A stretch of DNA of 64,000 nucleotides from Psammoneis japonica. Taxonomy: Eukaryota. The notes below the pieces were generated by a model. It was not told the origin of the DNA, searched no databases, and worked only from the letters and a program-made list of their open reading frames with translations. The translations under genes and the position numbers were made by a program. The stretch spans positions 1 through 64,000 of the forward strand of contig QPGO01000179.1 of NCBI GenBank assembly GCA_008632985.1, given 5' to 3'. Below, in pieces: positions 7,616 through 64,000 of this stretch (position 1 is the stretch's first letter; the number at the start of each line of letters is the position of its first letter).

Positions 7616-10600
7616 GGTCAACTCATATTCTGGCCGCTGCTTTTTTTTGCGCGCATCTATCGCGCATCCAACAAGATCGTCTGTCTGGCGAAATCCAGCC
7701 GAAGAGTGCAGAAAACCCAAAGTCAGATGAGCATCGCCGTGATGAAAATCAAAACTGGCAAAATGGCTCAATGAGAGCACAATTGAGCCAAATCAAAAAG
7801 GTCACAAATTCATCATCATCATGTGAGGCCAGTGCAAGCACGTGTGGTGCATGGCATTGCAGACTCTGCTGCTCTTCTTGACTGAGTGGAGACACACATC
7901 ACCGCCAGGGGACTGTCAGAAAACTCCTCATCTCCAGACCTGGGTCATCCACTTGGAGTTTGCACAAAGAGCAAGCAAAAGGAAGAAGTTCTCACAAAAG
8001 TGTTGCCACCTGCAGCCCTTTCAAACCCAACCCTCTTCTGGCCACACCATTTCCCTGAACTCATTTTTCTTTTCTCAACCACTGGGACTCTGCAAACCCA
8101 CTTGCTCTCTGTTTTTAATGTGCTGCTCCCCATCTTGCTCCTGTTCTTCTCCCCATTCTTTTTGCCTCTCTTGCTCACACTCTTTTTTCTCTTTTCTGGC
8201 ACACTTCCAACTTTCCACATTCACTCAAACTGACCCACAACACCTTCATTGATGTCTTGAGGTTCCAACAAAATTCCCCTGGTTGTTTGCCCATCATCAT
8301 CTGACCAATGACAAGCACTGTGAGCCAAAAGCTGAGCCTTGTCTGTGAGCCAAAAGGACAGTGCCTTGGAGCAACAGAAGCACCAGCATCTGCATCTGCT
8401 GCAATGAGAGGCTTGTTTGCTTGGGTGCATTTTGCCACCATCTGCTCCCCTGCAAGTGCTTCAACAAATGTTGCTGTGTGTGCTTGGAACACGAACCTCA
8501 ATGTTGGACAGAGTCTCTGGCACCAAAGAGTCCATGGCCAAGATGTGCAGCCATCTCTGGAGCGGTCTTGTTGTTGAGCAAGCCACTTTGTTCCAAGCAG
8601 GAGAGACCACTTTGGAACAACAACAGGAGCAGCAGCACACTCCATGGATGCTTGTCAATGCTCTTCTCCTGCTTTGTCTTCCATGAAGATGCAGCAATGC
8701 TGCTGCATTGAGAAGTGTCACAGCCACATCAAGGAGTCTCTTGTTTGTGCCAAAGAAACACCAAGGTTCATGCCATCTCTTTTGGTCAATGCTCTTGTTG
8801 AGCAAACCACTTGTGGCTTGTCCAGGGGGCACTTTAACACAACAGTGGGAGCAAGAGCAGTGCTGGTGCACACAATGAGGGGCCCCATGACTGCACTCAT
8901 TCTTTTCCTCTGCCTGTCCTTCTGCCAAACATTTGACCACACCACCACATTGACTTGTTGAACATGAGCACAAGCACCATTGCTGGGCAGAATGTCTTGT
9001 GCTAAAAGAGCCACAGCTGGTGACATGTCGTGAGCAGCGTTGTCTTTGAACAAGCTGCTTCCAAGCTGGGGAAACTTTCTTTCTAAAAGAAGAAAAGGAG
9101 TGACAGCAGCACTCTGGCATCTGTGGTGAGGGGCTCTTGTGCTTTGTGGCACACTCTTCTCCTGCACCCTCTCCACTCTTCTTCTGCCAAGATTCAATCA
9201 TGCTGCTGTGCTGATTTGGGAGATGGGGGTGCTGTCACTGGTCAGAGTCTCTTGCAGCAAGATCAACACAGCCAATGTTGTCTCTTGGGCAGGGTGTGCC
9301 CAGGTTGTTGTGGAAGCAGGTGTGCTTGCTCCTGCTGTTGCCTCTTGGACACAGCTCTCTCCTGTGAATGCAAAACTTCCTCTTGTTGCCAGAGCACTTG
9401 TTGACATCCAGGTGCAGAAGTCATTTGAAGACTGTGTGGCTGTCTGTCATTGCACAATGCCCGTGAGTGCCCATTGTTTCATCAAAGCACAGTGGCTTTT
9501 TTGAACCCAGCAGGCTGTGCATCAGCAACCAGTCAGAGTGAGCTCTGGCTGCTGGGTTTCCATTTGTGATGGTCTTGAAATGAACTGGCTTGGTTCAGGG
9601 TTCAGGCCCAGATCTCATCAACTGTGCTTCAATGTCTGCTGACTCATCAAGCCAGCATGCATTGCAATTGCATGGAGTGATGCCAGACCAAGCAACAAAT
9701 GACTGTCATTGGAGATGTTTCAGAGCATGCCCAATTGCAAAAAGCAAGCGCTGTGTCATGGGAAATCTTGCTGCTTTTGAGTTGAAAGCTTGCTGTGGTT
9801 GTTTTCAACAGCAGCACAAGAGTGCCCCACGATGCCTGCCATTGGAGCTGCACAGAGAGAGAGAGGTTGCACCCCCCAATTTTTGTTCAAACATCTTGGA
9901 TGCACCTGCATGGGCTCTGTCATGAAGCAAGAGTTGCAACTCTGCTTTGAGTGCAAGCACTTGCTCTGCAGTTTCTGGTTTGTGTCACAGAAACTTGCAG
10001 CTGCATCCAGGCAAAGGCACAGATTTGGATTTCTTGGAATCCATTGTGGAAGCAAATCTTGACATTGCACTCCAAGCCATCTCAAAACCTGTGACCAGGT
10101 TTCTCAATTTGAGACATCATGTGTCTTGTCTGCCAACCCATCTGCAAAACTGGCTGCCCCCCAGCCATGACAAGACCAGACTTGCATCCTGGAACACACT
10201 TCACTTGGACATCATTCTACAACAAATCCTCTTGCATTGGTGCTGTTGTGATTCTTCAGAATCATGTGTCAGACGGCCTGGAGTTCGCAAGTGATGAAGC
10301 CCACGCTCATGGCATCAGTTCTCAAATGTGCTGCAGGTGTTTGCCTGGCAGAAGATGCATTGAGAGATCTCATTCTCAGAGCCAGCAATCTGCCATTGTG
10401 ATGGAATGGCTGTGAGTCAGTGTCAAAACATGACAACCCAAAGAATGCGAAAAGCAAACTCTGTTGCTGCCACCCTCACAAGTCAGTGGCCGAGAATGTG
10501 CGACACAGGAAGGGTGCCTTTCAAAACCTCAACCAGCTGTTGGGGTGTGGCTTTGGACCCATCAAAGAAAGATGAGGCAGCTGGGTTGTTTGATTGGAGG

Positions 10601-13600
10601 GAAGAAGAAATGGAAGAGCTCAAAAAACTGAAGCTGCCTGGAAACTGAGACAGCTTGGTGGAAAAACAGTTCTGACATTTGTGCTGTTTGTTTGAGCTCA
10701 CTTGTGCTCTTTCTTTGGAGCCCAGGAGAAACATGTCAAGCAATCCAGCATGAGAGTGGCAGCTGCACTGTCATGGCAAGGATTGAAATGGGAGTGCATG
10801 CAGAAGAGAGCAAAGCAGAGATGCGGTCGACATGATGATGCAGGCACCGTGGAACAGAGGTGCTGCCAGAGTGAAGCTGCTCTGCCGGCAGCTCTGGCTG
10901 AAGAGCAGTGGCTGGAGCAGCAGCAGCAGCAGCAGTGGTGCAGTGGGTCATTTTCTTGTTTTCGTTTCGAGCATGTGGACCCACATCCATGAATGTTTGG
11001 CAAAAAAACTGTGGCCAATGTTTTCCTCCACACTTGTGCGGCACGACAATCCGCAGTGCTGCACAGTGTTGTCACGGGCAAGTTGTTCTGCACAGAATGC
11101 TGGCATCACCTTGCGTGGGATTTTTTAATCAGACTGATCAGAAAACACTGTCAATTGACAATTTTCCCCTTGCATGGACGATGTTTTGCTTTGGAATCTT
11201 GCACAAGCACTTGCCAGCATGTTGGAGGCACAAACACTCTTGCAACTGCCCAGTGAAGCCAGACACCGTCAGCAGAATGTGAGCCACAAACAACCACTGG
11301 ATGGCCAACCCTCCTGGGCACACTTGGATTCAAAGGGAAGTGACAGGCCATCCCACTCATGCTTCCGCTGTTTGTCACAAAGGTTCCATGGAGCAGAGGC
11401 ACAAGCAGGTTGCAGAATTTCTGCCTGCAGAGGAGTGCTTGCGGGTTGATCTCAAGAATGGCACCATTTGCCAGGACGAATTTTTGTTCGTCGCCAATCA
11501 GCACCTGCAGCGGGTTTGAAATGCAAAGAACAAGGCCTGCTTGGATCATTGCCGACCTTCGCTTCACAGGGCGGGGGATGCTGGACTGGGTGTTGCATTG
11601 AACAGTGCTTTCCATCTGGAGATTGGCGAAGAGGCAAAAATTTGCCAATGGTCACTGCTCCTGGCACCTTGTTGACTGGAGAGAAAAAATGCACAACAGC
11701 TGGCAATCACAATGCATTGCTCATCAGACTTAGAATTGCTGGTGTGGAAACTGATGACTTTTTGTCTCACAGCCACATTTGGAGTTGGGTCCAATTTTGA
11801 AGTGCAAGGGAGCTTCAGCTAAAGTGCAACTGCTTTTGCATCTTTGTCCTCCACCGGCAGTCAGCTCTCCACAGATCAAGAGCAGGCACCATTGGCTTTT
11901 GTTCGGATGGCAACCCAAATTTGCAGTCCACCACATCATTGCAAGCGCACAGGCAAACAGCGCAGAAATGGTCCAGCAGTGCATTTCGATGACAGGCTTG
12001 GGACTTGGAGTGGAAAATGCCCCCCACCGGCTTGGAGGCCAGGAAAGAAAGCAAAGGACCACCCTGAAACACAGATGCAAGGGAGCATTGTGCACGAAAA
12101 CAGAAACCACGACAGCGATTCCACAAGTGCTGCGACCGTCATTGCAGTCCATGGGCGCACACACGGAATGACCAAAGCGCAATTGCAGATTGCCACACTG
12201 TCCTTTTGGTCTTTCTGCTGCCACTGCAAAGGCTCAAATTGTGCATCAAAAAAATTGAAACACACCAATGTCAAAAGCGGCAATTGAAGTCGGTTGCGCA
12301 GGGTGATGTTGCCTCAAGAGCTCCATCAAAAGATGGCGCTCAAGCTTTTGCGCATCTTCAGAGTGAAATGTCGCTCAAAAAAAGTGAAAGGGGGGATGCA
12401 CTGCGGAGACAACAAGAAAACTTCAAAGTCAACCGCATTCTAAATCAACACTCCCTGCAAGTGAAGACCTGCCGCATCATGTCACTGATGCGACGGAACC
12501 CCAAACCCGCGTTCTGTCAATGGCATGATCTGCTTTGCGAGCTTTTGCTGCTTCACAGACAAGCACTGCTGTCTGTTTCAACAGCCGTGACCTGACGGGT
12601 CAAGCAAACAGGCAACTTCCTGCACTCAAAGACACAAGAGTGACATGGTCTCAAGGCCGGAGAGACGCGCTTGATTTGCCCCAACCTCTGGACTTGGCTG
12701 GCAACACCTGCGCCACCCAGAGACAAAACGTCAGCAAGCAAAATGATTCGTGGAGCACCAAACCGGAGCTGGCATTCTGTTCCAGAGGAAGGCAAGCCAT
12801 CATTGGCAATGGCTGCAATCCTTGCTTGGTGAACAACAAACACATCATGCAAGATGACAAGTTGTGATTGATCGAAAGCAAGAGCTCAAAAGAACAAAGC
12901 TTTCCGAGAGATTTTGCGTGTCACACAACTGTTGCTGAATTTCTCAATCACTGTCCTTTTTGTGCATGTTTGTAAAATTGATGCCATGAATTTGCATGTA
13001 GAAGATTCGCAGGAACGCAGTGCTTTCATTGACATTGCCAATTCCTGCGCACACTTTGCGGCAACCATCGAAAATGCAAAAAAACTGCCAGACGTTTCGC
13101 TTGAGGCCTGAGCTCCCAAATTCTCCAGACTCCAAGCAGCACCGCACTTCACTCACCATGTGACTTGAGACTGCCGCCTGCCGCCACTCCCAGCTGGGAG
13201 GTCTGCAAGTGGTGCGGAAGGCCTGCCGCCTGCTGCCCAACATGGCAATGTCATTCAGTGAGGGCGCAAAACGCACGGGTGTCACACCCGGGCAGGCATG
13301 ACGCACGGATTCAAAAACAGGTGTTAAACTCCAATTCATTCATGGGGTGTGACACTTGGGGGTCACACCCGCATTGTTTGCACGGGTGTGAAGCACCGGG
13401 TGTGATGCCTGGTTTTCATCAGTGTAGAATTCAGCAGGACAAGTGCCAAAGAGCCAACAATCAACATCAAATCACTCAACAGTCAACCAGCACTGCGTTT
13501 GCATCCAAGTCGATGCCACAGTGTGATTCTTGCAGCATCTGTCAAGGCCAACACAAGTCCAATTGCCTCAACACATCACAAGTCAAACATTCATGCCCAC

Positions 13601-13899
13601 TGTTGACATGCCACGGTTGCTTGCAAGTCATTCTGGCGGTGCAGGTGCCGTGCACTTCAAATGCCGACGACCGCTGACACAATTTGATGGAGTCAGCACG
13701 ATGCATCAGGTGTGCAACAATGCATTCATTCCATGTGCAGCACTTCTGTGCTTTCTGACAATGCTCTTTTTTCTCTTTTGCATGCTTCAGGTGCTGAACA
13801 GTTCAAAACAATTTGAAAAGTCTTTTCAAAGAATGCACGTGACGACGGCTGCGCTGCTCTTCACTCTTCACGATGCTTGCCTGTCTTGTGCTCAACAAG

Positions 13900-14980
13900 T
13901 TCCGGCACAAGGCATGTGTGGCTGTTTGTTTTGTTCTCCCTCTTCCCTTCATTTCTGTTGTTCTGAGAGCTGCCAGTTCTTTTTTTGCCTGGTTCAGGTG
14001 CTGCTCCATTCACCATGCTAAATGCAACAATCAAAAATGCTGGTTGTCGGGATGAACGTGACGACCGCAACACCACTTTGCGATGCTCAAGGTGTGTGCG
14101 GCTGTTGCTTTAGTTCTCTCTTCTCCCTTTCTTTCTGTTGCTCGCATGACTTGTCATTTCTCCTCTTGCATGGTTCAGGTGCTGTGCAATTCATCATGTT
14201 GGAATGCAACAATGAAAAATGCTGGTGGCCCCACTTTGCGATGCTCAAGGTGCGCGCGGCTGTCACTTTAATTCCATCTGTGCCCTTCATTTCTGTGGCT
14301 TCCAAGACTTGCCATTTCTCCTCTTGCATGGTTCAGGTGTTGTGCAATTCATCATGTTGGAATGCAACAATGAAAAATGCTGTGGCTGTGATGGGCATGA
14401 CGACGTCAACACCATGCTCAAGGCACAAGCTGGCACAATTTTGATTCTCTCCATCCCTTTGTTTCTGCAGTGTTGCAGACTTGCTGCTCCACCTCTTGGG
14501 AGTGACTGCTTCTCCTCTTGCGTGGTTGACATGCAACAATCGAAAATGCTGGTGGTTGGGACAGGTGCGACGATGGCGACGTCGTGATGCTCAAGGCATG
14601 AGCGGACATTGTTTTGATTCTCAGACTCACTGCTCCACCTCGTGAGAGTCAATGCTTCTCCTCTTGCATGGTTGACATGCAACAATCAAAACCACTGGTG
14701 GTTGGGATGGGCATGATGACGGCGACCCCACTTCGTGATGCTCAAGGCACGAGAGCGCACATTGTTCGGATTCTCTCCACTCCCTTTGTTTCTGTGATGC
14801 TGTTCACTTGCTGCTTCACCTCTTGAGAGTCAACAGGACCTCACCTCTGCTCTTTCACAGTTCATTGCTGGTGGTCGGGATTTGGGATCAACGTGACAAC
14901 CGCCACACCTGCTTGCGACGCTCAGGGCATGTGCGGCTGTTGCTTTGATTCTCTCTGGTTCCTTTGTTTCTGTGTTTCTG
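13900..14980. repeat. degenerate tandem array of ~6 units of ~130-190 bp
   Basis: Recurrent TTCTCCTCTTGCATGGTT...ATGCAACAAT(G/C)AAAAATGCTGGT...GATGCTCAAGG. Confidence 0.8.
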
Positions 14981-17189
14981 TCATTTTGTTGCCACACACA
15001 GTTGTTTCATGGACTGCCATTGTCAAGCTGACGAATGTGGCATCTGTTCATCCGTTTCCAACTTTGTGTGGGCTCCCTCCAGAGTTCAGAGTTTTGCTTC
15101 TGCTTGTTTGCAAAAAGCACTTGATTTGTCCCACATGTGAGACCAAAGAGCAGTTCATCATGGTTGTAAAGAAAGTTGTTGTTGCCATGCCTCCCAGTGC
15201 AATGAGAGCCCACACCACACAGAGGCTTGGTGGTGGTGTGGGTGCTGCCGGCAGGGTGGAGCAGTGATGCGATTTTTTGCCATTGGCCACGACGACTGTG
15301 TTGTTGTCACCATCTCAATCTGCCAGGACCTGTTCCAACCTGTCTCTCTAAATGTTCATGCTGGCATCATCATGATCATGAACACCATCGTGTTCTGCAT
15401 CACTGTCGCCGCCGTGTCCCTCTTCCTCGGCCTCCACCATGTCCACCTGTGCAAAACACACTTCTGGCGGGTCGTCACCACCCACACCAACCACATCAGA
15501 GTGCACGACATCGTAATGTCTGCACACATGATAAAAACATGTTGCTGTGTTATAAAATCTGCTTGTCTGCACATGATGGTTTTTGTCATTTAGTTGATTG
15601 TCAATCTCCTGCTGTTCTTCATGTTTGAACACAGATGCTTTTTAATTTTTGTGCTCAGCCTTTTTCACAACTGCTGATGATCTTTAACGACAAGCCAAAC
15701 ATTGCAATTGCATGCAATGAAATTTTCATCATGCAAAGTGTGCGCCAATCATTTGGTCAATGACTGTGCTCCAATTGGCCTGTTCGTCCGCATCGTCCTC
15801 TTCATTCCACATGTCTTGTCCGCTCTCTTGCAAGAATTTCAAATGTGCGTGCCGCTGCTGCATTGGATGTTTCCTTGTCACCATTCCAAAAAAGCCACAC
15901 TGCATTTCTTGCATTTGGGTGAACATCATTGAGAGGAAGAGGTCCCTCGAAACGCAGAATCGTGTCGCTGCTCCCCTCTTGACGTCGTGTCGTCTGCTTC
16001 TTTTTCTCTTTCTTCATTTTTCCCGTCCCATTTTTCTCTTCCTTCTTCGTCTTGGCGCCACCTGTTTTCACCGTCTCCGGTGTCTTTCCAACCGAATCCT
16101 TCTTTTTCATCAATCCCGTCGCCGTCGCCTTCATCGTGTGTGACTTTGTTCTGGATCCATGTTTCTGACTTCTCTCTGTGCTGTCCCCATTTCCAAATGT
16201 TTCTTTGTGATTGTTCGCATGCGTCACTTGAAGGCACCCACGTGTTCTTTACGCACCTTAACGCGCATGCAGAGATCCATGTTGTTTTCCAGCACATGCA
16301 CCCTTTCTCCTGATGCTGTTCCACACAACATTTTCTTCCATCAATTCTGCACTCCGCATTGCCCTTTCCCGGTGTTGTCTCACGTGGGATTTCTCTGGGA
16401 GAAGTTGCGTGCGCGTCTGGCAGGTTTTTGTGTGTGAAACTCCAAATCCCACCAGGCACGCATGTGACTTCTCCCACGCACCACTCTGGCATGTTTCCAC
16501 AGAAACCAGAATTTGGTGACTGATGCACGACCAATCTGGTGAATGCAATGGCGGACCCACGACCACAACAATCAGAGCATTGGAAGAAAACCATGTCAGA
16601 TGAACTCTGTCCATCCGCTGCTCAGAATTTCCATCGCCGGATGATGGAGACAGTTGATGGTTTTGTTCATGCTGACGCTGCTCATTGTTTGGAGGACCAG
16701 AGAGCAAAGGATGCAAAGGCTGCTGTGTCAAGATCGGCAGAAGCAATGGCAGAAGCCCGTTGTGCTGCTGTGGCTGCAACAACTGCACTTGACAGTGCTT
16801 TGTTAAATCCAGCAACAACCGCTCACAAATTTGCGCACATCTGTGCGCAGTTGATTGAGTCATCAATCGAGACACACTGTTCAGACAACGACCACATTGT
16901 TGCAGTGGAAAATTGCAGCGAAGCGAAAATGAGTTTCCAGCACTTTCTTTGCGGCAACGCATTTGACGCAAAAGAATTGGGGCTCCCAATCTCCATTGCG
17001 GGACATCAAAAATCAGAGTTGAGGCTGCACATGCTGCACAGCTGTGACTCGACGTTGCTTCTGAGAAGCCTCAGGGCAAATTCTGACACAGATGCCAACA
17101 GAGCAGTGGAGAGGGAGCAATCTGCGATTGACAGCATCAACAAATCCATCCACCGCCGTGCCGTGCCACTCCTTTGAAGGCAACATGGT

Positions 17190-17953
17190 TTTGAAATTTT
17201 TGGTTTCTAGAGTGACAGGAATAGACTCGCTGGGTGGAAGAGGGAAATGCTTGGTTGAGGTGCACATCAACTCTTTTCTCCTTGGCAGAACTGCACCAAG
17301 CTCAATGTTGCTGTCACCAGTGTGCCTCTCAATGAAGTCAACAATGTGGTCGCACAATTCCAGGGGAGCACCGCGTGTGTCCATGAGCTTCTTGCACAAC
17401 TCTGCGCAAGCTCTGTCAAGATTTGTCAAAGAGGGAGTAGAAGCCAAGGCCTCTTCTGCAGGAGCGTCACACCTGCTCCCCAAATGTTGATCCTCATCGT
17501 CAATGTCCTCTTCCTCCTCCATTGTCACGTCCAACACTGCAGCAAAGGATTGACCACCGCCAACATCCAACTCGTTCATTGCCAAAAAAGTTCAGCTCCT
17601 TGCATGCTGTGGTTTGATGAAATGGAGGACATGTTGTCCACTCCGTGCGGCGCGTCATCCGGGGAGGGGAACAAGGGGCTGCTGCTCGGATCACTCGTTG
17701 AAGATCTTGGGAATCTGCTACGAGTTGATCGCCTGGGACAGGATTCGTCATCATCAGAGGACAAAGAGGAAGAACTGCCGCTTTCTTTGGGTGGCCCCTC
17801 TGTTGTGGCAGGAATGTCGCTTTGATCTGGGACCAGATCTTGGGTTTGCAACTCTTGGGCAACTGAGCAACACGTCGGTGAGCACCTCCAATGGCAGGCC
17901 ATTTGCAAAAAACTTTGGCCACAACCGGGACAGAGAAGAGGGGTTCCGTCCAT
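17190..17953 (-). pseudogene. N-terminal relic of a Plavaka-like transposase (Zn-finger, acidic tract, helical segment)
   Basis: CPGCGQSF...HW...C followed by LMDTRGAPLELCDHIVDFI...LPRRKEL...P..IPVTLE, resembling the APLxLYD N-terminus of Plavaka-type ORFs as I recall them. Catalytic core not seen. Confidence 0.5.
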
Positions 17954-18405
17954 TGCAAATCAGACAATGTTGACAGGGCCTTCATCAAGACTCATGCTCG
18001 TCATCCTTGTCTTGTGGATGAGAAGGGAAAAAAAGAACAACACGCAAAAAATGGCGGGAAATTGGCAAACATTGCATTGTCTTCCAGATTGGGATGATTC
18101 TCACAGGCATGATGCATCTGCATTTTGATTTTTTATCTGGCATCCACAACGAACATTGTGCTTTTTATTTGCTGTCAAAATGCAGGATGCCATCTCCATT
18201 GAAGCGCAATGACAGCCACATCAAAAAGCAAGTTGGGCCACTCATTGTCATGTGTGAACACATTTTCAAATTTCAACGTTGCTGACAACAATTTGTGCAA
18301 TGTCACAGAGAAAAATAGAGTGCCTGGCTGTCTCAACACGACCCAAATGATGGTTGCACTGTCGAACAGCACCGCTCCTCTCATTGTTGCCGTGAAAAGA
18401 TCAAG

Positions 18406-49275: not shown

Positions 49276-49293
49276 TGGATGTTTGTGTCTTAA

Positions 49294-51888: not shown

Positions 51889-54800
51889 CTATAACTTTTG
51901 TAAACAGTAGTCTTGCCACATTCTTTTCAAATCCCTTTTGTCAGTAGGGATGGACAAAATCCGGCATCCTCCTCGAAAGAACAGCACACCGAGCAACGTA
52001 TTCACTGCTCTTGAGTTTTTGCCATGACCAGTGGTAGTGCATGTGTACAACACCACAAAATCTCTACCCAAAACATTCATTCTTGAAGCTGGTAGAAGGT
52101 CAACAGCCCATTTTGGGTCCGTCTTGATCCCCGACGGAGTCTTAGTTTCCGGCGTGTGATACAAGATAGCTTTCAGAAGAACAGCGGCTTCGGCTTGTGC
52201 ACGTGTCCGGTAGAACGCGACATCTCTTTCATGTGCCACCAGTCCTTCCAATGGCAAGACGCAATCGTTGTAGTTCCTCCGCAAAAGCACTTGTTTCGCT
52301 GAATTAACGGTGGCAGTAAAAATTGGATCCCGACCAAATTGTTCATTGGTTGTGCAATGGACCAATTGACGTTTCCCTCTTTTCCTTTTCCGAGAAGCCA
52401 CTGCACCAAGACTCGTCATAGCCAGTTTCGCCAGTTCTATCATTCTATATGTGCCGTCTGATCGGTTAGCTCCAAACATGCTTTCCAAGTCAGGACGTGT
52501 CGAGTTCCGAGTGACGCTTCTTCTGCTAAGAGTCAGCGTTAACTTAAGATCTTTGTTGACACTGGTGTAGCAAGGTTGATCATCCTCTTCACATTTGCTG
52601 ACATCGAAGTCAAGCTCAGAATCTTTGTCCACCTTTGCCCGAAGAGATGCTTCCCAAGCGTAATTTCTTCCTATGCCAGAGTGACTGTTCTTGTTGAACT
52701 TGGCCCTCTTCTTCTTTCGAGTCTCGTTCTTCTTGCGGTCTTCTGGGAGCACAGACGTTTCGGAAGTTTTCACTTCTACCGGCTTCAAGGATGCAAACTT
52801 CCCAAGCACCCAAGGACAATCCATTTCAATTCTATTGTTGATCTTGTATTGGGGAAGTTTCATTGGCTCACGCACCAGATCATGCTCCTCTCCTTCATCC
52901 GAATGGTACTTCTTGAACGATTCTATCCTAACTCCGTTTTCAATTTCAAAGATAGATTGATCGTGGTGAACAGTGTCTGGCCTGTAGCAATGGCCATTCT
53001 TTTGAATCCGTTGAGACATGCCACTCTTGACAAGCTCAGACGTCACACAGTCCGCATTTTCACCCAAAGTTCTGAGTTTTTCACAAGGAACATTCTCGGC
53101 CACAGCTGCACTTGTGCCAGTGAGTTGGGCAAACTTCTTATAACACTCATTCACCACAGGAGTTCTAATGCCAAACGTCTCGTTGATGACCTTGTATGTG
53201 CGTGTGGAAGGACACACTCGAGCTTGCTCCACCAATGTCGCATCCTCGTACATGGCCACTATGCTGCCGACTGCAACCAAAGTCTGTGCTCCAATGTCCG
53301 CCACACCAACGACATTTTGAATTGGAACGCCATTCTTCTTGTCGCAGTGAGTGAGAAGCTTGAGCACTCCGTCGTAATCTAACTCTCCAGCATCAGACTT
53401 GCGAATGGATTGAAGAAGATTAAACAGTGAACGATAAATCCCCACATTTGTAGTGGAGCAGGTGAATGCCGGCTGCAAGCGACTGCCGTCGCCACGCAAC
53501 AGCCCACCATAACGACGCACGCATTCATCAATGAACGCCTCTGTGAGATTACACTTGGGAAGACCGTTCTTCGCCCACCCTTTGTACACTTCGTACATCT
53601 GATTAGGGGTGGTCAACCATCCCACTGGTAGAAGCAATTCGCAAGCTCGCTCCTTAGAGACTGGAAAAGACCGCAGCACGCACAGTGTGGCAGAGGCGAA
53701 GGCTGCGTGCCACACTATTTTGTTCATGTTGGGGAAAGGATAGTGGACCCCAATAGAACGTGATGGCAGCAAGAAACGTGCATCGATTTGGCGATACTCT
53801 TCCGGCAAGGAGTGGAAGAAGTCCAACATCTGGCGAAGCAACTCGTCACTGCCAGCTAGACGGATGAAGTACTCGGAGCAGCAACGACGACTGTATCCGA
53901 TTAGACTTATTCGATGCCATTTGCCTAACAGGTAATAAATCAATAATGACGTTAGAGCGTATACATTGCACGAATCAAAAATGAAAGACACGCTATAGTA
54001 ATAACTCACCATCAATGCACACATGAAAGTAGATACACATCAGAGCGTTGTAGTTCTTTTTCCTACAATTCAAGTCGTCTACATGGCAACCAAGCAATAC
54101 AGCCAGTTTTGTAATAGGATCTAACTCATCCGCCGAGGTCATAGCCAATGTAAAGTGCTCAAACAGTTGTGCTTGTTTGCCGTTCTTGTTGATCCGGTTC
54201 AAACCAAATTTGTCGCAAAGTTTGGAGGCAAAGTAATCGTTCCGCCGTTTGTCTGCAGTAAACGGCACTTCGTCCCATCCAGGAGTAGCTTTTACCCAAT
54301 CATAAAGTATGTCAGACATGCAACACATTGTTTCCACGTGCTGTTTCCTAAGCCCTTTAGTGACCTGAGGTTCTGTTACTCCGTCTTCATTCAACCGTGT
54401 GTTTTGTGAAGCATATCCACCGCCTGTAGTGACATTGCCCCTTAGGCGGTCACCAGTATCTTCCGAATGAGACTTCAATATGTCATCAACCAATCCCTTG
54501 ACATCCAACTTGGACAAATGGGGTGCAAAACAATCACGCCAAAAATCACTTTCATGGTCAATGTGCACGAACTCGCCAGGGTCAATGTACGTCCCTTTTA
54601 TTCTATTGATAGGAACACCTTGTTCTTTCGCCAGTTTGTTAAGCTTCCCACGATCAGAACGGGGATTTTGGCAATGCGGTTTACTGTGTCCGTCCCATAA
54701 CATATAAGCTCCAGCTTCCGACACCTCTAATCTGTTGACAGATTCCGTCTTCCACTTTTTGGAAAGTAATCCATATCTTTTCACGTTCTCAGGTTTGAAC

Positions 54801-54904
54801 TTGAACGGTGCTTTCGGTTTCTCAAATACCAAATCTGGTTGTTGTTCAACTGGCCATCGAGGCCTCGGAGCGTCGCCGTACCATGGAATGCCAGGTATAC
54901 CCAT
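51889..54904 (-). CDS. 976-aa protein, putative TET/JBP-like 2OG-Fe(II) dioxygenase domain plus HhH/aGPT-Pplase-like helical domain; exons 54904-54010 and 53924-51889
   Basis: An 85-nt GT-AG intron joins two long ORFs in frame (2931 nt). Motifs CHVDDLN, RISLIGYSR, VVGVADIGAQ, AENVPCEKLR. The gene model is firm; the domain identity is inferred from motifs only. Confidence 0.6.
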
Positions 54905-54927
54905 TTCTTAAAATCTTTGAAGTTCTG

Positions 54928-55268
54928 CAGTTGTTTCCGACCAACTTCACAACGGATCTCACTCAAAGGCAAGAACTCAGCGTGACTGTAGCCGAAACCA
55001 CCGAAGTAGCAATAAAGCTAGCCCGATGCCCGAGCCAGTAGCTCTTGGGACGACTTTAGAACAAGATGTCAGATTTAGGATACCTCACAACCCAAAAGCA
55101 CGACAGCAGCTAAACCGGTGTCAATAAACAGGTGTGGCTTTACAGTTGTTTCCGACCAGTTTTCACAACGGATCTCACTCAAAGGCAAGAACTCAGCGTG
55201 ACTGTAGTCGCGAACCACCGAAGTAGCAATAAAGCTAGCCCGATGCCCGAGCCAGTAGCTCTTGGGAC
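54928..55268. repeat. near-identical ~125-bp direct duplication (54928-55051, 55143-55268) just upstream of the 976-aa gene
   Basis: CAGTTGTTTCCGACCA...GCCAGTAGCTCTTGGGAC occurs twice, with TA sites intact. Confidence 0.9.
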
Positions 55269-56784
55269 AACATTAAAACAACAAATCGACATCGATCCCG
55301 ATCCAGATAGCTCCAACAATGAGAAAATAATGAGAGTGCCGTTTCGAGTGGCAGGCACAAGGAGTGAAAACATTTTTGCACAACATTTGTCTTGCACTTT
55401 AGAGCACGTTTTTTTTTTTGGTGGGTGGTTAAGTGGCAAACCACACATCACTTTTAAAGGAGGTGCTGCAATAAGTCATTCTCAAGAGGATGTGATCATT
55501 TTTTGTGCGTGACATAAAATGTCATAAGAAGTCATTTGCACGGCTCAAAATGACTTTTAACTCAGACGTTGAGCACCGTTGTGCAGCACCGGCTCGTTGA
55601 AGAACTGGGGCAAAATCCTGTGAAATGGACCAAAAAATCGCATGTCACGCACGGCATCTATTTTAAGTGGTCTCACACACAGCACAGGTGCGGGACAGGG
55701 CATGAAACGAGAGCGAACATTTTGCACAATGCCTCGCCACAACAAACAGCACAAAGACCATCAGCCCAGCGGCACTCAATCTTGATCAAACCCCAATCAT
55801 GCTCACCTTGCAGCAACCAAGGATCCTCTCAGGAACAAACCATGACAGCAACACCACCAACGCAAACCCGCGCCGCCTCAGATTTGTGGCTGCTGTGGCA
55901 AACAAAACCATGGCACCACTGAATGTTGCTCCTGCTTTCAGGATTTAAAAATGGCACAATCAGCCCACCTTCAACCAAGAAGCTCCCTTGTGACCTGAGT
56001 GAAGTCACCTGCTTTCAATGCAAGAAAACAGGCCATCTTCATTCTCAGCGCCCCGAGCTCCAGCAGACAGACAAACAAGCTGCTCTCACTGCCACCACTG
56101 CCAAAACCTGCCGCAACGCTGTCTGGCCTCCCGGCAATGAAGTTGTTTTTTGTGCTGCCTGCGCTGGTCTTGACGACATGTTCTCTTGTGATTCATCCTC
56201 AAAAGACTCTGTTCCACCCCCCAAATCACCTCCTCTGTTGCCCGATGACGACTCCTCATCCAACTCATCTCTCAGCTCAGACCCATCTGATCATTTTTCC
56301 CCTGTCGACTCATAGATCCATGCCCACCCTGACCCCACAGGAGCTGCTTGACAAATCCAACGCCAAATGTGCAGCCAACAACGACCAGTCCATTGACTCT
56401 GACACCACCTGTCCCCCGCCTCTTGCATGTCATGACCGCAACTCCAGCATGGACTCGTCCTCAGCTGCACCAATTCTGTGTCAGCCTGAACTTGCTCCCG
56501 CCGCCATGGCACTGACGCTGCCATTGGACTTGAATGACACGTGATGAGTCATCCGCAATCTCAGAGCTCAGCACCGATGCTCTCAAGCAACCTTCATTCT
56601 CCCTGTCCAATCCAGCTGATCACATTGCAATGTGTCAAGTTGTGCACGTGGCCAACGATGCCACCCGATGCCAACCCCAGCAGCTCCCATGTGATGACAA
56701 CCTCTCTGACATTTGCAGCTGGTTTGTTGGCTCTGGTGCCTCCTCCCATGCCACAACTTTCTTGACAATCCCGTTGACTGTCAT

Positions 56785-57173
56785 GACGGGTTCCAGCCCC
56801 AGGTGGGACTTTTTGTGACATTTGCCCCGCAGAATTCCACGTGTGAGCTCTGCAGTTCATGCTCTGGTCAATGAATGCATTTGTCTTCGACATGAAAAAA
56901 ATGGCCAAGTTTGTGGCACATCTGTCCCTGTTTGCACTCGAAGTTTTGGACAATGCACCTGCCCTGCACCATTCTTAAGACACTCGAGAATGGCGCAGAA
57001 GAAAAAAATGTCAAAAGTTGTTCAATGGACAGCCTGATGACTGCACTGTAAAATCATGCAAAATTTCGCCAAAATCACGTAGAAATGTGCGTGCGCGACA
57101 TGCGACGCGATTCAAAAAACTGTCGATGTCACAGTTCAGCAGTGCAAGGTCCCACCCAGACCTGGAGCGCGTC
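56785..57173 (+). mobile_element. 389-bp MITE (family X) inserted in the copia protease, TSD TCAT
   Basis: TCAT-GACGGGTTCCAG...CTGGAGCGCGTC-TCAT; protease-like sequence resumes after it. Confidence 0.85.
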
Positions 57174-57273
57174 TCATGCCCCTGTTGTGATCACGGATGG
57201 TGTGCTGCCATCCATGCCACAAAAGTTGGCTCCGTCACCCTGAATTTCCAGGATGATCAAGGATGCTCTGTCA

Positions 57274-57490
57274 GACATGCTCCAGCTCCAGGTGGGGCCT
57301 TGCACTTCTGAACTGTGACATCAACAGTTTTTTGGATCATGTTGCATGTCCCGTGCGTGCATTTCTGCGTGTGACATCCATTCTGCAAAATTGTTTCACA
57401 CTCCCTGTTTTGCGAAGCCAAAGGCTTTCCATTTCCAACATTTGCGAGAACGAAAATGCAACGGGTGAGCTCTTCAATGTCTGTGGAATG
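57274..57490 (-). mobile_element. truncated MITE (family X variant, like 34344-34741)
   Basis: GACATGCTCCAGCTCCAGGTGGGG end; the interior matches the reverse complement of 34520-34740. Confidence 0.7.
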
Positions 57491-60189
57491 CAGACATTGA
57501 TGAAGGCATGAACAATCCACCCCAGGACCAGATGCCTGCAAATGTCATCTGTTTGCAATGAACACAGAATGGCAAACCCCTCTCTGCAGAGACTCAAGAG
57601 TCCACGGCCGATCAACTCCATTTTTTGCCAACCCATTTGCCAATGTTGTGTCATGTTGCATGGCACAATCTCCCTCTGATGAGATGTTTGGCATGAAGGT
57701 GACCACTGATGCGCTGCTCAATTGGGCGTGTGTTTTGGGAATCACAAGCGAAAGTTCTGCCTTGCTCCTTTTTTCATCTTCAAAGGCTGCTCTGAACAAG
57801 ATCATGGGAGTGTGTGTTGCATCAATTGATGGCGTGGATGTTTTCACAAGTGACCAAGTCATTGCTGAACTCCGTTGCCTTCATGATGCCAACAACCCAG
57901 ATTTCAAGATTGGCTTTGCACCTGAACACCACCTGGACTCAAAGCAACTCCAACGGGCTCTTGTGGAGCATGACATTTTTGACATTCTGACAGAGGATGA
58001 GGGGCACGTCCCTGATCTCACCTTGGCCAACGTGCACTTGATTGCTGTGTTGCCTTTCCCTGACATTGATTTTTTGGTGATTGATGATGTGGGTGCTCCT
58101 CTCACACCGTTGACTGACCATGATGTGGGTGCTTTCAACCTCTTTGCTGTTTTTTCTCATGCTGTCACCCCTGAAGAACAGGCTCCAGACAGGCACACTT
58201 GCCAACATCTTCAGAAACTTCTGACTTGGCCCCTCTGGCATGATGGTGAATTCAAACAACTCAATCACTTCAACTCGCTTGGCATGTTTGGCACTCCAAT
58301 GCCTTGCCCACAAGGTGCCATTGTGCTGTGCCCTTGCTGGCAATGCAACGTCATGACAGATGGCACAAAGCCAGCCCCACTGCTGCTGTGATGGGTCCCC
58401 TCAAGCAGCCCCTGCGTTGCACTGTTTGCAGCCCACCCATTTGTCATGTGTGGAACAACCCATCCAACATCTCTTTTTTGCTTTTTTGGCCACCATGGGC
58501 TGCCAGGCAGGTTCTGGCAATGCTCAGGATGCTTGTGCTCACTCCTGCCTCCATCTGCTCCAGCACATGTCCAGATTGATGATGCCTGCGCTGCATGGCA
58601 TTTGGGTCATTTGGCATTGCTCTGGATCATTCCGCGGTCCTGCCCATCTTGTGCACATTGCAGGGGAACCCTGTGTCTGGCATTTTTTGGGAAGATCATG
58701 TCAATTCCATCCTGGCAGATCCCAAGTTGCTGTTTTGGAACACCGCCCACAACAAGTGCATCCACTCTGGCACGTGCAATGGAAAACGGGTCTGCCTGTT
58801 GCACCAAGTTGACAATTTTGCAATTGCCTGCCCCTCTGAGCCACATGCCATCAAGATTTTTGATGCTGTTGGAAAAGCTCTCCAACTCCCTGGTGAGGAC
58901 TCCATTCCTTTCAAATGTTCGGGCCTTTGCACACAGAATTCAATGGTGCGGACATGCACCAATGCAATGACTTGGCATCCATTGCCTGCAACAACTGCAT
59001 TGGACGCACGCTGCTTTCCCATGGATGGTTGCACCTGGCTGCGAATGAATCTGACTTCAATTTTGTGGTTGCCCCTGTTCCTGTTGACTCCATTTCCCAA
59101 TTGTGCTTGGATGTTGGTCCCAAGGAAGGTGCACCTGAGTTTGCTGAGCTGGCGGAAGCCCAAGGTTTTGGGTGTCAGAATCTCCTTGGCAAGCTGGTGC
59201 ATGCTTGCATCATTTGTTGCCTTGGCATCAGCCATGCTGTCACCAACCTCTCTAAGTTTGCATTGCATCTGGCACCTGTTCATTGACAAGCCTTGAAAGG
59301 TGTTGCCAAGTGTCTTCAGCACACAAAACACTGGGGCATCAGCTGTTGCAAGCCCTCCAAGGACAACACTTTGCCACCCTTTCCATTTGAATGGCTTGAA
59401 GCAGACTCCTCCCTGCCCCCCTTTCCTGTTTTGGATTTTTTGACTCAATTGCAGGATTTTTTGGATGCAGCTCATGGGAATGATCTCTGCGATTGTCGCT
59501 CCACTGTGGGACATGCTTGTGTGTTGGCTGGTGCCGCCATTGCGTGCTGCTGCAGAACACAGACGGTGACCGCCACCAGCTTGAGGGAGACGGAATTTCA
59601 GGCTGATGCCGGCACACTGCAAAGTTGGTTTTGTGCCTCCATTCAGTCCTGCGTGAGCTTGGATTCCCTCAAGACTCCCCAACCCCGTTGCATGTTCTTG
59701 ACAATGAATTGGCTGTCAAGATTGTCAACCACTGCATCCCGGCTGAACGCAATCACCACATTGACATCCAGTGGTTTGCTCTTCAAGACTGGAAAGAGGG
59801 CCGGTCATGTTGTCACATGACGTGTCCCTGGCATCATCAACCCAAGCAATGACACTTGCGCTGATCCACTGTTGCTGGCATCTGCCAAGTTGCTCCCTTT
59901 TTTTGTGCTGTCTGACTCTTTTTTCCAGTCATCCGGTTTGCTCCATGTCCCCACTTCTTGTTGAGACTGTCTTCCCTTTCTTTGTGTTTCTTGATCTGCG
60001 TCATGCAAATTCAAGACATGTTGGATCAGGGGAGAGTGCCAGCTTGCCCTGCACAGGACACACAGTCAGACTGTGTGTGGACGACAGTCAGACTCTTTTT
60101 AGAGAGACGAGATGATCTCTCTGAGATTTTCTCTCACTTGTTCTTGCCAGTGTGCGTGTTGTCCACTGTTGCTGGTCTGCAGGGAGCTC

Positions 60190-61340
60190 TTCAGCTTGTT
60201 GCTCTTGCCACAGGTGTTCTGACAATTCCCCCTTGCCCTTGCCATTTTGGGGGATTCCCAAATGGGCAAAACCAAACTGAGTGCTGCAAGATGCATCATG
60301 GTCAGTTCAACAGACATGCAATGCAACCTTGTTGTGCTCAATGTGAGCGACTTTCTTGAAAAGAATTCCCAGATGCTTGAATGCCACAATTCCTGTCCCA
60401 ACACCAACAAAAACCACCAGAACAACTGCGCCATGATGTTCTTCTGGTTTTTGCTCAACAAGCTCCTTGTGTTTCTTGCAAGGGTCCAGCACAGCTTCCT
60501 TGAGCTCCCCGCTCCTCATGAGCCTTTGGCGCTCCCCTCCACACTTGCCTTGATTGCACAAATGTGACTCCACTTGTTTTGCATGTTGTGTGCCTTGCAA
60601 ATTTGCTCTCCCTTCACCCACCCAATGGTCCTGGGAAACTCAGGCAAAAGTGGCTTGCAATGGGACATTCGCTCAGCTGCTTCATCCTCAACAGCTGCTG
60701 TCAATGGATCACACCACTTGCTTTGCTCCTCATCAATTTCTGCTGTTGTTTGTCCTTCTTTTGGAAGAACCCTGTGACAGCACTTTGGGTGGAGAAGGTG
60801 CTGTTCACTTGGTGAGATCCAACAGTCAACCTCACCTTTGGCTGGAGCACCCCACATTTCCGGGTGCTTGACGTGACAACCACACCCAGAGCAGCAGAGT
60901 GGAGGAGGTTGCATTTGAAGCACTGCTTTGTCCCCATCTTCCAAACCACCAAATCCCTTCTCCATGCATTTTGCATGGCTCTGGTCTGTGCAACAAGGCT
61001 CATGGAGCTTGTTGCAGCTGGTGGGGATGACGGTGTGCCATTGTCTGGACCACCCCACATTTGTCAGAACAGTGCGCAAGTTGTCCACAACATGCAGAGT
61101 CTTGAGAGTCTGTTTTAAAGAAGAAGTGTCCAGCTTGACATGCTGCCATGTCACAAGGGAGCTGGTGGCAATGTGCAAGTCACTTGCTGGACACATTTTT
61201 GTTGGGAATGCAATCCAGCGGACATTGCAAGCAAAATCATGTGCTGGAGATGTGCTCCAGCCGCACATGAACCAAACTGTGCACAAAAACAACACTGACT
61301 TGCGATCAAGTTTTTTTTCACCAAAAGCATGGGTTCATGC
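60190..61340 (-). pseudogene. C5-cytosine DNA methyltransferase (DNMT3-like) relic, truncated by copia-3
   Basis: AVVLVVFVGVGTGIVAFKHLGI..KKVAHIEHNKVALHVC resembles motif I-II (VLDLFAGIG.G...LK.LGI.....E.D..A); ERQRLM just upstream resembles the ERERLMG segment. Upstream extent uncertain. Confidence 0.55.
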
Positions 61341-61559
61341 AAATTTGAATGTTTTGCAACACTGACAACACTCATGTCAGTGTTTCAACGTCACTGTTTT
61401 TGTGCAATCTATGTTTTTCATGGCAGCAAATGAGTTGCAACACAACAGGTGATTTTCAGCAAAACTGCTGCATCATTTTGATGTTGACATGAGCAATTTT
61501 TCTGCACTGCCATCTGGTGTGCCTTCTGCCTGCAGACAATGCTCTGCATGCAATGCGTT

Positions 61560-63078
61560 GGGACACATGGCATTTTGTTGCCAAGTGCAACATTCCCCCA
61601 AATGAATTGGACAATTTGTCATGAAAAACGCACTTTGAGACAAATTTCAATCGTTGGTGATGAACAAGACAAAATCATCATTTAATTGGCAATGCCATGT
61701 CTCCTTCACAAACATGCTGCCAACTCATGGGATGAATGACAAAAAATGCTTTTTTGGCAAAGACAAGCACACCAAACAATTTTTTGGCAATTTTGTTGTG
61801 TGCACAACAAATTTTGTCGTGCGTGCAACAAATTTGTCATTCGTCTGACAAACGCTGACAAACGCCAACAAACGCACACCACACAAGAACAAACACCAAC
61901 ACCATGTGACAAATGCAGACACCACACGACAAACACAGACACCATGCGACAAATGCCAACACCATGCAACAAATGCTGACAAAAGCAGACAAATGCAGGA
62001 CAAATGTGTTTCGCCAAACCATGCACGCACTTGCACAGCACACACCTTGGTCCACCAAGGGCCCTTTGGAGCCATGTGCAACAACACCTGCTCCATCCAG
62101 ACGACCGCAGACCGCAACAAACAAAAGGGGCAAGACATGCAATGGCATGTTCGAGTCCATTTTATGATGGCAATTGTTGGTCAATCATGACACAAGTCAG
62201 CGCAGTTGATGCCATTGATTGAATGTCATCTGCATCATAAAAGACAAGGTGAGATGTGGCAGCTCATGTGCAGAACACTTGTGCAACAGATCGGTTGTCA
62301 TGGAAGCACTGTTCTTGTGTCGTTTCATCACAAGCGCGGATCACAAAAGGCAGCAAGAGTGGTGTCTGGGGCAAAAGTGGAGCCTCACATGGCCAACAAA
62401 AATGTGGCAGATTGAATGTTCATGTTGTTTCCTCCCTTTGTTGCATCTCATGTGAAGAGTGCTGCAATCGCATTGTCATGCTTTTGTTGTGTGGTCACAA
62501 ATGCATGCCGCAAGGCATCTGTCGCAAAGGCTGAGGCCACAGCAGAGCCGCACAGCACCAATGTTGACATGGAGAATTCAGTGGAAAAATTCATTCCTCC
62601 TCATTCTTCCAGAAGGGGCCACATTGCGTTGATGTGTCGATGCATCATCATCGTGCACAAGGGACAATGTGTCAGCCAAGACCACAGGCTCACGCCAGTT
62701 GCATGCTGTGGGTGTTCATTTTTGTGAGTCGTGACGTGTCGTGGCATGATGTGTCATGTGGTGTCTTGTCATGTCGTGTCATGTGCGACAAATTTTGTCA
62801 TGTGTGCGACAAATTTTGTTGTTCAAATTTTGTGGCAGAGAAAGTTTTTGCGATGACAAAGATTGCCAAATTTTGTCAAATGCAGCACTCAGTGAAAGGA
62901 CATCACCAAAGCACATGTTGTGCATGAATGACATCAAACATTTTGTCGCTGAATTTTACAATGTTTTTGTTGCATTTGTCGCAAACAATTTCAGTTTGTC
63001 ACAATTGCATCTTTTCAAGACAAAACATTGATCCATTTGAGAAAATGTTGCCAAGTGCGACAAAATGCCATGTGTCCC
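61560..63078 (-). mobile_element. non-autonomous TIR element (family Z) copy 2, no nested MITEs
   Basis: GGGACACATGGCATTTTGTTGC / GCGACAAAATGCCATGTGTCCC; reverse-complement homolog of 33508-35713. Confidence 0.8.
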
Positions 63079-63192
63079 TGATGCACAATCAGGGTGCACA
63101 ATCAGCGCTGAGTTGGCTGAGGGAGCTCATGACGACACACGTCCCATGAGGACTTGCATGCCAACAAAAAAACCAATTGAATGTTCACACTT

Positions 63193-63584
63193 GATGCACT
63201 CCAGGTCCAGGTGGGACCTGGCACTGCTGAGCTGTGACCTCAACAGTTTTTTGAATCGTGCTGCATGTTGCGCATGTGGATTTCTACGTGACTTTGGCAA
63301 CGTTTTGCTTCATTTTGTGGCACACTTGTCGAGCAATCTGCCCAACAACTTTTGACATTTTTTGTTGCAGCACCACTCTGTGATGTCTCAAGAATTGCAC
63401 GGGGCAGGCAAATTTGCAAAAAGGTCAAGTGGCAAGAGGCACAATTGTGCCACAAACTTGGCCACTCATTTGATGTTGAAGATGAACACATCCATTGATT
63501 AAATTCTTGCACTGTGGAGCTCATGTGCAGAATTCTGTGGGCCCAATGTCACGTGGAGTCCCACCTGCGGGGCTGGAACGTGTC
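63193..63584 (-). mobile_element. ~390-bp MITE (family X), TSD ACTT/ACTC
   Basis: GATGCACTCCAGGTCCAGGTGGGAC ... GTCCCACCTGCGGGGCTGGAACGTGTC. Confidence 0.75.
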
Positions 63585-64000
63585 ACTCCAGACACCTGTG
63601 AAAGCACATCCACTCAAGTGTTTTGTGCGCAAATGCTGCACACACAAGAGACACATGATTTGCGCTCAAAATTGATTGTTGTTTTGTGCATCACCTGGGG
63701 CTGGAACATGTCTTGGGCATGAAACGAGATGGGCTCATGGGGGTGATTCTCTCCACAACATCTGTGCAAAGATTGGTGCACAGTCTGCACCCGGCTCCCT
63801 TTTCACTGGGGTTTTGCTGCAGGCTGCCAGGGTTGGGGTTGGGGTCAGGGTTGGGGCTTGAGCGGACTGAAGAATTTGCCATGTGTGCAATCAAAAACAG
63901 TTTTGTGTGCTTTGGCATTGGCGACAGAGCATTGCATCAACCATGGCCCCCGGTGCTTGGTCTCACTTCTGGAGTTGGCAGCACAATGTCACAACCTTTC

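Follow-up and report, generated by a model that had tools for sequence, protein, structure and literature searches.

Repeat-induced point mutation (RIP) of fungi changes CpA/TpG to TpA, raises the TA and AT content and creates stop codons; it depends on the length of the duplication and on a cytosine methyltransferase-like protein. To our knowledge, no genome defence that mutates A:T pairs was known before a preprint of 2026. That preprint (Mettrop et al., bioRxiv 10.64898/2026.01.13.699255) reports that integrated viruses of Bigelowiella natans undergo TpA→TpG/CpA hypermutation de novo, as seen in mutation-accumulation lines: in the integrated nucleocytoplasmic large DNA virus (NCLDV) and virophage regions, 230 of 231 mutations were A→G/T→C, all of these on TpA, at rates of ~6e-7 (between ~1e-7 and ~1e-6 per site and generation) and in some lines only. 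The B. natans genome contains 124 clusters of 1-kb windows that are depleted in TpA and enriched in CpA+TpG, and its low-TpA coding sequences (CDS) are enriched in reverse transcriptase (RT) and DDE Pfams. The authors of the preprint read the process as defence, put forward an ADAT2-like candidate and cite the DNA activity of amphioxus and trypanosome ADAT2. Here, we describe a TpA→TpG/CpA footprint in the first 64,000 nucleotides of contig QPGO01000179.1 (Psammoneis japonica assembly GCA_008632985.1; this whole stretch is referred to below as the window), where a TpA-specific mutator acting at the level of DNA has most probably driven transposon-rich blocks to saturation. An initial annotation of the window, made from its letters alone, had named no described pathway with such an effect; the preprint supplies one, with this spectrum arising de novo.

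Observed/expected (o/e) ratios of TA, CG, TG and CA were computed in 1-kb bins and pooled over this one 64-kb window, which contains 943 TA and 2289 CG dinucleotides, very unevenly spread. TA loss is confined to discrete regions with normal neighbouring genes, and the positions of the remaining TA fix the edges of these regions to less than 500 bp. Block 1 (7659–19707, 12 kb; TA positions 7658/8116 and 18316/19708) has 35 TA in 7751–19500. Block 2 (26526–48521, 22 kb; TA positions 26525/27242 and 48352/48522) has 94 TA in 26751–48500, 30 of them in a single pocket described below, and block 3 (55665–64000; TA positions 55664/55946), which runs off the window, has 15 TA in 55751–64000. The blocks make up 66.2% of the window, in agreement with the two thirds given by the initial annotation. 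Pooled, they contain 114 TA in 41,824 bp (0.27% of positions, o/e 0.04), whereas the islands between them contain 746 TA in 18,297 bp (4.1% of positions, o/e 0.60); a TA density equal to that of the islands would give the blocks ~1,700. Unmutated Copia relatives at three metagenome loci have island-like composition (TA o/e 0.50–0.84, CG 0.81–1.26), which favours taking the islands as a baseline.

The sliding-window TpA/CpG check that the initial annotation proposed was made within the window and bears out its picture of blocks nearly devoid of TA, with TG/CA in excess, alternating with normal islands. In the block bins (8–20, 27–48 and 56–64 kb), the TA o/e was 0.00–0.13, with the sole exception of the 33–34 kb bin (0.39), and per-kb values of TG and CA were 1.46–2.24 and 1.45–2.23, respectively (1.75–1.78 when pooled). 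In gene-bearing bins, TA was ~0.4–0.9 and TG/CA were near 1.1–1.3. AA, AT and TT are not depleted in the blocks (AA o/e 1.0–1.44 in 1-kb bins). GC content is flat (48.8% in the blocks vs 47.9%), because TA loss and a loss of CpG, treated below, push it in opposite directions. Fungal RIP is similar in that domain-wise, dinucleotide-specific transitions on both strands disable transposons beside intact genes and leave a trace that dinucleotide indices reveal (compare PMC2621366 and PMC7882544). Unlike in RIP, TA is erased here and TG/CA gained, so the direction is the opposite one, as had been claimed; GC content stays flat, no stop codon is made and C→T change at CpA raising TpA was not found.

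The direction of change can be read from repeat copies. A repeat-family copy on the plus strand at 33536–35715 (copy 1) matches one on the minus strand at 61558–63585 (copy 2) with 74–87% blastn identity, and shorter members of the family lie at 56784–57173 and 47232–47387. When letters are collapsed to purine/pyrimidine, the copies are 91–98% alike, as against 74–87% in full letters. The aligned parts 33779–34344 and 62168–62733 (566 bp) are both without TA and differ by 17 adjacent CA↔TG double differences. Fitted to this alignment (CG/CG 8, CG/mutated 13, mutated/CG 2), a model with CpG decay alone expects ~1.6 such swaps; it thus follows that ~15 of them come from ancestral TA mutated separately in each copy, which corresponds to ~30 former TA in 566 bp, the density of the pocket. 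This pocket (33254–33725), an unmutated part of block 2, contains 29–30 TA in 472 bp, with a GC content of 33% and a CpG o/e of 1.35. In its repeat copy (the reverse complement of 62839–63026), eight aligned TA sites read CA in four cases, TG in three and TA in one. Over six informative copy pairs (a seventh, 13905–14622 vs 14085–14775, overlaps itself and is uninformative), there were 229 transitions vs 88 transversions, and CA/TG was the commonest dinucleotide difference (46), CG/TG and CG/CA differences being common too (29 and 23). In a five-copy, 390-bp family, five sites vary between copies, some of which still read TA and the rest TG or CA. The pocket-versus-copy sites, the independent TG and CA outcomes and the replacement of tyrosine by cysteine or histidine described below show that the change is TA→TG or TA→CA, as was originally stated, and that it took place after the copies had separated, in place. 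A purine/pyrimidine-collapsed self-comparison of the window revealed no hidden pairs of long terminal repeats and no further repeats.

The pocket is spared although it lies inside a repeat unit whose adjoining part and other copy are erased. No open reading frame (ORF), tRNA or Rfam match was found in it. It might lie in protected chromatin, have been patched in later by conversion or be a young insertion.

The same substitutions are legible in a protein. A remnant of a Copia-type RT/RNase H lies at 44032–46110 on the plus strand, in block 2. Its ORF 44504–45424 matches RVT_2 with an E-value of 0.0022, below the cut-off; in an exhaustive HMMER search, this ORF gave 2141 matches at E<=1e-3 and 564 at <=1e-10, and by tblastn residues 705–1347 of P0129, a 1368-aa Copia-type polyprotein, fall on 44270–46077. 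The longest ORF of the remnant has a single Tyr. Among 106 columns found conserved in 143 normal homologues, eight are Tyr; the window RT has Cys at five of these, His at two and Tyr at one. Thirteen of the 38 conserved columns that are changed lie one TA→TG/CA step from the consensus (shuffle mean 4.07; 13 was reached in 1 of 2000 shuffles), and five lie one CpG step away (shuffle mean 1.63; 18 of 2000 shuffles). The earlier statement that conserved residues change as TA→TG/CA predicts thus holds for the Copia RT that was tested (seven of eight Tyr, 13 of 38 columns), but its extension to the blocks at large meets the fact that recognisable proteins are rare in them.

Proteins of this kind also occur elsewhere. 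Among the 150 best RT homologues in a library of 1.84 billion proteins, seven, drawn from ENA, Logan and JGI/IMG, have less than 0.5% Tyr (the median is 4.4%). A further Tyr-free protein, P0271 (1377 aa), is found in the cluster of P0133. At 16 conserved-Tyr columns, eight Tyr-free proteins (70 cells) have Cys in 39 cells, His in 20, Tyr in one and other residues in 10, whereas eight normal homologues have Tyr in 63 of 74. Since the Tyr-free proteins are just 34–48% identical to the window copy, they belong to other lineages. A metagenome scan with P0271 retrieved three loci, all with normal TA (o/e 0.50–0.84), and recovered no TA-erased DNA.

TpA→TpG/CpA change never makes a stop codon: the new C fits no stop codon, and the new G after T gives TGA only from TAA. 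The change removes TAA and TAG and wipes out Tyr codons (to Cys or His), the ATA codon of Ile and others. Per 1000 triplets, the blocks contain 1.4 TAA, 0.7 TAG and 24.4 TGA vs 10.1, 8.9 and 17.7 in the islands. Since no stops are created, elements are crippled by missense change and not by truncation. For the same reason, the blocks are rich in long ORFs and a Tyr-free “polyprotein” of 1377 aa can exist; ORF length in such DNA is no evidence of genes.

The 114 surviving TA have a strong context (Y, pyrimidine; R, purine). T precedes 47% of them (position −1) and A follows 55% (position +1), as against 25% and 24% in the islands. Relative to the islands, survival was 0/110 for ATAC/GTAT, 0/41 for ATAT and 1/57 for GTAC; it was 0.03–0.08 where the A of one strand has a 3′ Y, 0.13 for CTAA and 0.32 for TTAA. 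Since the TA that survive lie in YTAR, the preferred target is A in T-A-Y, above all in TAC, and A in T-A-R is a poor one. Loss of R-TA-R appears as R-CA-R (+13.9 per 1000) more than as R-TG-R (+6.1), and this bias is strongest for G-TA-R, whose other strand offers T-A-C. The o/e of the GC dinucleotide in the blocks rises to 1.22. These data show a 3′ context rule, T-A-Y and best T-A-C.

The natural target of TadA/ADAT, A34, follows an invariant U33, and TadA reads U-A-C-G. The T-A-C preference found here matches the U-A-C of TadA/ADAT2-ADAT3, the likeness being one of target motif only. Because of this resemblance to the anticodon loop of tRNA, and because the authors of the preprint name such a candidate, the foremost candidate for the agent, though at somewhat less than even odds, is a DNA-acting adenine deaminase of the TadA/ADAT2 type, the kind of enzyme suggested for B. 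natans; we put this identity forward by analogy and with reserve. Alternatively, T in R-T-A might be the attacked base, oxidised for instance by a TET/JBP-like enzyme to 5-hydroxymethyluracil or 5-formyluracil that mispairs with G. Wherever one strand offers a T-A-Y target, the complementary strand offers an R-T-A one, and T→C is the outcome expected of 5-formyluracil mispairing. We nevertheless consider a thymine-directed agent unlikely, given the resemblance of T-A-C to the U-A-C of TadA and the ADAT2-like candidate that the B. natans authors found.

The two DNA strands are affected alike. The blocks contain 4626 TG vs 4574 CA, and four block stretches taken separately have TG/CA counts of 1265/1265, 653/727, 1738/1633 and 970/949. 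A runs test on these stretches (z from −0.87 to 1.67) detected no kataegis-like, strand-coordinated series of TG or of CA. Tyr→Cys changes, which need A→G on the sense strand, and Tyr→His changes, which need it on the antisense strand, occur within one ORF. Since both strands are changed equally, the mutation occurred at the DNA level, in place; the mutator does act on both DNA strands, as the initial annotation had it. Equal strands, absence of runs and the presence of Cys and His in one ORF together rule out that the changes stem mainly from an RNA intermediate edited in single-stranded form. ADAR-like A-to-I hyper-editing of retrotransposon transcripts, fixed by reverse transcription so that the blocks would be pre-edited insertions, might have been suspected from the Copia remnant in one block and from the fact that ADARs favour a 5′ U (bioRxiv 10.64898/2026.01.13.699255). 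It is further opposed by the lack of AA depletion, by a 3′ preference for Y and not G, by a TA edge that cuts one repeat unit at 33725 and by DNA that has no retroelement signal and is erased just as much. This explanation is largely contradicted, and we regard it as very improbable. Host deaminases such as ADAR and APOBEC3 are alike in ruining invaders by clustered, neighbour-biased transitions (bioRxiv 10.64898/2026.01.13.699255). Unlike ADAR, which acts on RNA and marks one strand, and APOBEC, which makes C→T/G→A changes, the process in the window changes A:T to G:C on both DNA strands.

A second, separate process operates in the same domains. The CpG o/e is 0.39 in the pooled blocks (0.03–0.80 per kb) vs 1.00 in the islands, with CG lost and TG/CA gained, as in decay of methylated CpG. 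With the islands as a baseline, the blocks have lost 37.6 TA and 34.5 CG per 1000 tetranucleotides, 72.2 together, and have gained 72.3 TG+CA; about half of their TG/CA excess is thus supplied by CpG loss. TA loss is uniform (0.00–0.13), whereas CpG loss varies 25-fold, and the two are uncoupled, for example at 16–17 and 19–20 kb. The blocks resemble sites of 5-methylcytosine (5mC) deamination in their CG→TG/CA change, but CpG decay can neither remove TA nor turn Tyr codons into Cys or His codons. CpG→TpG/CpA decay is therefore shown to be a process of its own, which leaves the TA loss unexplained. The footprint initially described, TA loss with TG/CA gain, was correctly seen, but the parallel decay of CpG had been overlooked.

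A region at the left end of the window demonstrates the TA change apart from CpG decay. Two long, weakly retroelement-like open frames are located at 1–3224 on the minus strand (one of 399 aa that runs off the window, the other of 730 aa; Pol_BBD E 0.029, below the cut-off). Here, the TA o/e is intermediate (0.28) and CG is normal (0.94). Two R-TA-Y sites are seen where ~37 are expected (survival 0.05), whereas survival is 0.44 at sites with one good strand and 0.51 at Y-TA-R. The ORFs have 0.8–1.4% Tyr, and the 730-aa one has a Cys-rich, knuckle-like stretch. Judging from sequence, these ORFs may either be mutated at present or have adapted to avoid the target motif. The pocket, the partly erased 1–3224 region and the saturated blocks form a graded series that follows the same context rule.

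These data bear on the possibility that there is no dedicated mutator and that CpG decay, combined with error-prone repair of the Pol eta type at WA or with GC-biased gene conversion, acted in methylated heterochromatin. Pol eta errors favour A in WA, non-canonical mismatch repair can be triggered by deaminated 5mC, and CpG is low in the very same blocks. Against this, TA loss is uniform and uncoupled from the variable CpG loss, the partly erased ORFs of 1–3224 have normal CpG and AA is untouched. The removal of 97% of TA, with near-absolute dinucleotide specificity, is moreover unlike polymerase error spectra or gene conversion, and such an origin is highly improbable.

Contigs assembled from three runs of one sample were aligned to positions 7001–27000 of the window (5,354 contigs placed), run X1 covering all 30 bins. 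Modified bases can give systematic miscalls on some platforms, and the runs available all come from one sample. That a modified base in silenced DNA was miscalled, the true sequence keeping its TA, is nonetheless barely credible, since four X1 contigs in block 1 (446, 599, 548 and 452 bp) match the window with 0–1 deviating letters at a word depth of 55–110, so that TA-less sequence exists at the read level; since TG or CA outcomes are fixed and differ between paralogous copies, whereas strand-discordant miscalls would also give CG and TA; and since, as independent support, Tyr-free Copia proteins are present in ENA, in Logan and in JGI/IMG, and the B. natans preprint obtained the same spectrum from Illumina data.

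The same contigs were used to look at copy number, with the reservation that summed contig depth is not a copy number. A multi-copy segment extends over 15005–20003: summed X1 depth is 3,400–24,800 over 15.0–20.3 kb, and loose ends of contigs pile up at 20003. At 12.3–13.0 kb, the summed depth is 3,587, vs ~90–200 elsewhere in block 1 and in gene bins, which fits a multi-copy family. Multi-copy depth and loose ends reach ~300 bp (19708–20003) past the TA edge of block 1 at 19707. Since the last TA-free position falls short of the end of the repeat, TA density at that end is normal, and the mutated domain stops at a different base from the element. In one X1 contig (depth 68, 85% likeness), position 9916 is followed by 26 other letters and then by 19952; the contig could represent a haplotype or paralogue without a 10-kb segment that includes the multi-copy element.

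At 54921–55281, in the last island just before block 3, there is a 140-bp direct duplication; its copies, 94% alike, lie 215 bp from each other and have both retained all six TA. As to duplication as a trigger, what is erased is multi-copy DNA and repeat families, but also stretches at gene depth, and the 140-bp duplication in the island is spared. The description of the process as repeat-targeted is thus upheld in part only, in that sharp-edged domains hold transposon remnants and multi-copy DNA while genes are spared, but parts at gene depth are erased too and island duplications are untouched.

Several points weigh against a TpA-specific mutator directed at transposon-rich DNA and should be considered together. 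Parts of block 1 (7.7–12.3 and 13–15 kb) have gene-like summed depth, and hence not all mutated DNA is demonstrably repeated. A firmly recognisable transposon protein is present in one region only, 44.0–46.1 kb. In the CpG-rich 390-bp family, CpG decay and not TpA loss dominates: 26 variable sites have CG in some copy, 11 have TG/CA only and five have TA, and the favoured C-TA-C context keeps its TA in two copies. Two of 10 pocket-site outcomes, read from the alignment by eye, are likewise contrary to the simple context rule. As an approximation, coding islands and three foreign Copia loci stand in for the composition that the blocks had ancestrally. X1 may be the window's own sample, and the check for a base-calling artefact that had been called for is accordingly answered in part, in that X1 contigs carry TA-less sequence at the read level, which is support but not independent support. 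Finally, the letters of the window are equally compatible with the A of T-A-Y and the T of R-T-A as the attacked base, and they hold a footprint and not de novo events, from which present-day activity does not follow.

The blocks are probably silenced, transposon-rich DNA between the host genes of a diatom-like alga. In the mechanism that we propose for the TpA-specific mutator, an enzyme directed to foreign or repeated chromatin would reach the blocks and turn A into a G-pairing base at T-A-Y in DNA, on either strand, giving A:T→G:C change. Acting site by site, it would continue until its targets are exhausted, with ordinary 5mC decay proceeding alongside. The role of such a system may be genome defence.

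The islands carry ordinary genes. Island 1 (3301–7658) is occupied by the ANAPC4 gene on the minus strand (PF12896, E 6.5e-9; PF12894, E 1.5e-8), with a TA o/e of 0.42–0.65, and its nearest cluster of homologues is mostly Bacillariophyta. The left edge of block 1 lies ~45 bp upstream of the codon with which ANAPC4 probably starts, and one X1 contig terminates at 7647, right by this edge. At positions 7145 and 7151 of ANAPC4, runs X1 and X2 both read C at full depth where the window has G and T, which may be an allele, a strain difference or an assembly error. Run X2 has GT..AG joints in genes and is RNA-like; it covers 15 of the 30 bins, almost all of them in islands, and its missing cover in block 1 was not used as evidence.

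Island 2 (19708–26525) contains a coatomer beta gene on the plus strand (PF07718, E 1.2e-37; PF14806, E 5.2e-14), with GT..AG joints in run X2. The best matches of the coatomer exon are 73–80% identical, none of them near-identical, and the named ones among the 120 listed are all diatoms, at 73–77%. The window is therefore diatom-like and not from B. natans, for which matches of ~100% would be expected, provided that the collection searched includes its proteins. On the minus strand of this island (24915–26492) there is a 526-aa ORF without a Pfam family but with direct repeats inside: 93-bp units at 25208–25393 and 166-bp units at 25621–26080, 72–80% alike. Several irregular joints are seen in this region in runs X1 and X2. 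Island 3 (48522–55664; TA o/e 0.34–0.64) contains a dynamin exon on the plus strand (PF01031, E 3.3e-15) and the ORFs 51892–54039 and 53996–54907 on the minus strand. The former is a 716-aa frame of normal composition with no Pfam family and no homologue within the length range searched.

In the blocks, little else could be recognised. None of the 244 stop-free ORFs of at least 90 aa in or overlapping 7.5–64 kb outside the islands gave a Pfam match above the cut-off, and a relaxed scan of 20 block ORFs returned only the weak RVT_2 match (E 0.0022). No homologue was found for ORF 18774–19838 of the multi-copy segment, and the block ORFs 37520–38494 and 58699–59715 have no relative among viral contigs. 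A reading of ORF 57504–58388 as Copia-like is supported neither by Pfam nor by tblastn with Copia polyproteins and was dropped. A scan of the window detected no tRNA, no Rfam family and only short tandem arrays.

The closest described system remains that of B. natans, as presented in the main text of the preprint. In both cases, the change is exclusively TpA→TpG/CpA and on both strands, here in the form of a footprint, and TpA frequency is low (CDS mean of 0.0018 there vs 0.0027 per bp in the blocks). Unlike in B. natans, the targets in the window are a Copia remnant and multi-copy DNA, and two block ORFs lack a viral relative; since the preprint also lists RT and DDE among TpA-depleted CDS, a viral target may not be the defining feature. 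Unlike there too, the process is saturated here (o/e 0.04 in domains of 8–22 kb vs a Rho of 0.45 in the NCLDV region), and the organism is diatom-like. The T-A-Y context, the no-new-stop property, the loss of Tyr and the co-located CpG decay find no mention in the main text of the preprint. A search for literature on the same signature in diatoms, stramenopiles or elsewhere found nothing beyond it. The window looks like a second lineage with TpA hypermutation, one in which transposons are hit and saturation has been reached.

The preprint, in its main text, covers one species and two viral insertions; the window points to completion of the process over tens of kb of transposon DNA. To the B. 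natans description it adds the T-A-Y (best T-A-C) rule, the independence from CpG decay and the Tyr-free, stop-poor pseudo-ORFs. The last provide a footprint screen for any protein database, in which one would look for transposon proteins that lack Tyr and abound in Cys and His. Base-editing research, too, would have an interest in a natural enzyme able to edit A in double-stranded genomic DNA with dinucleotide precision. As a conjecture that we hold to be possible but somewhat doubtful, a TpA-directed DNA adenine deaminase defence may be common to distant SAR algae, chlorarachniophyte and diatoms, and act against transposons and viruses; it would read T-A-Y in the manner of a deaminase of the tRNA anticodon loop and work by missense change only, and intact elements such as that at 1–3224 would be partly footprinted, mutating now or shedding R-TA-Y. 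If the process in the window and that in B. natans are the same, the mechanism would be widespread and ecologically relevant, in a group with good genetic tools.

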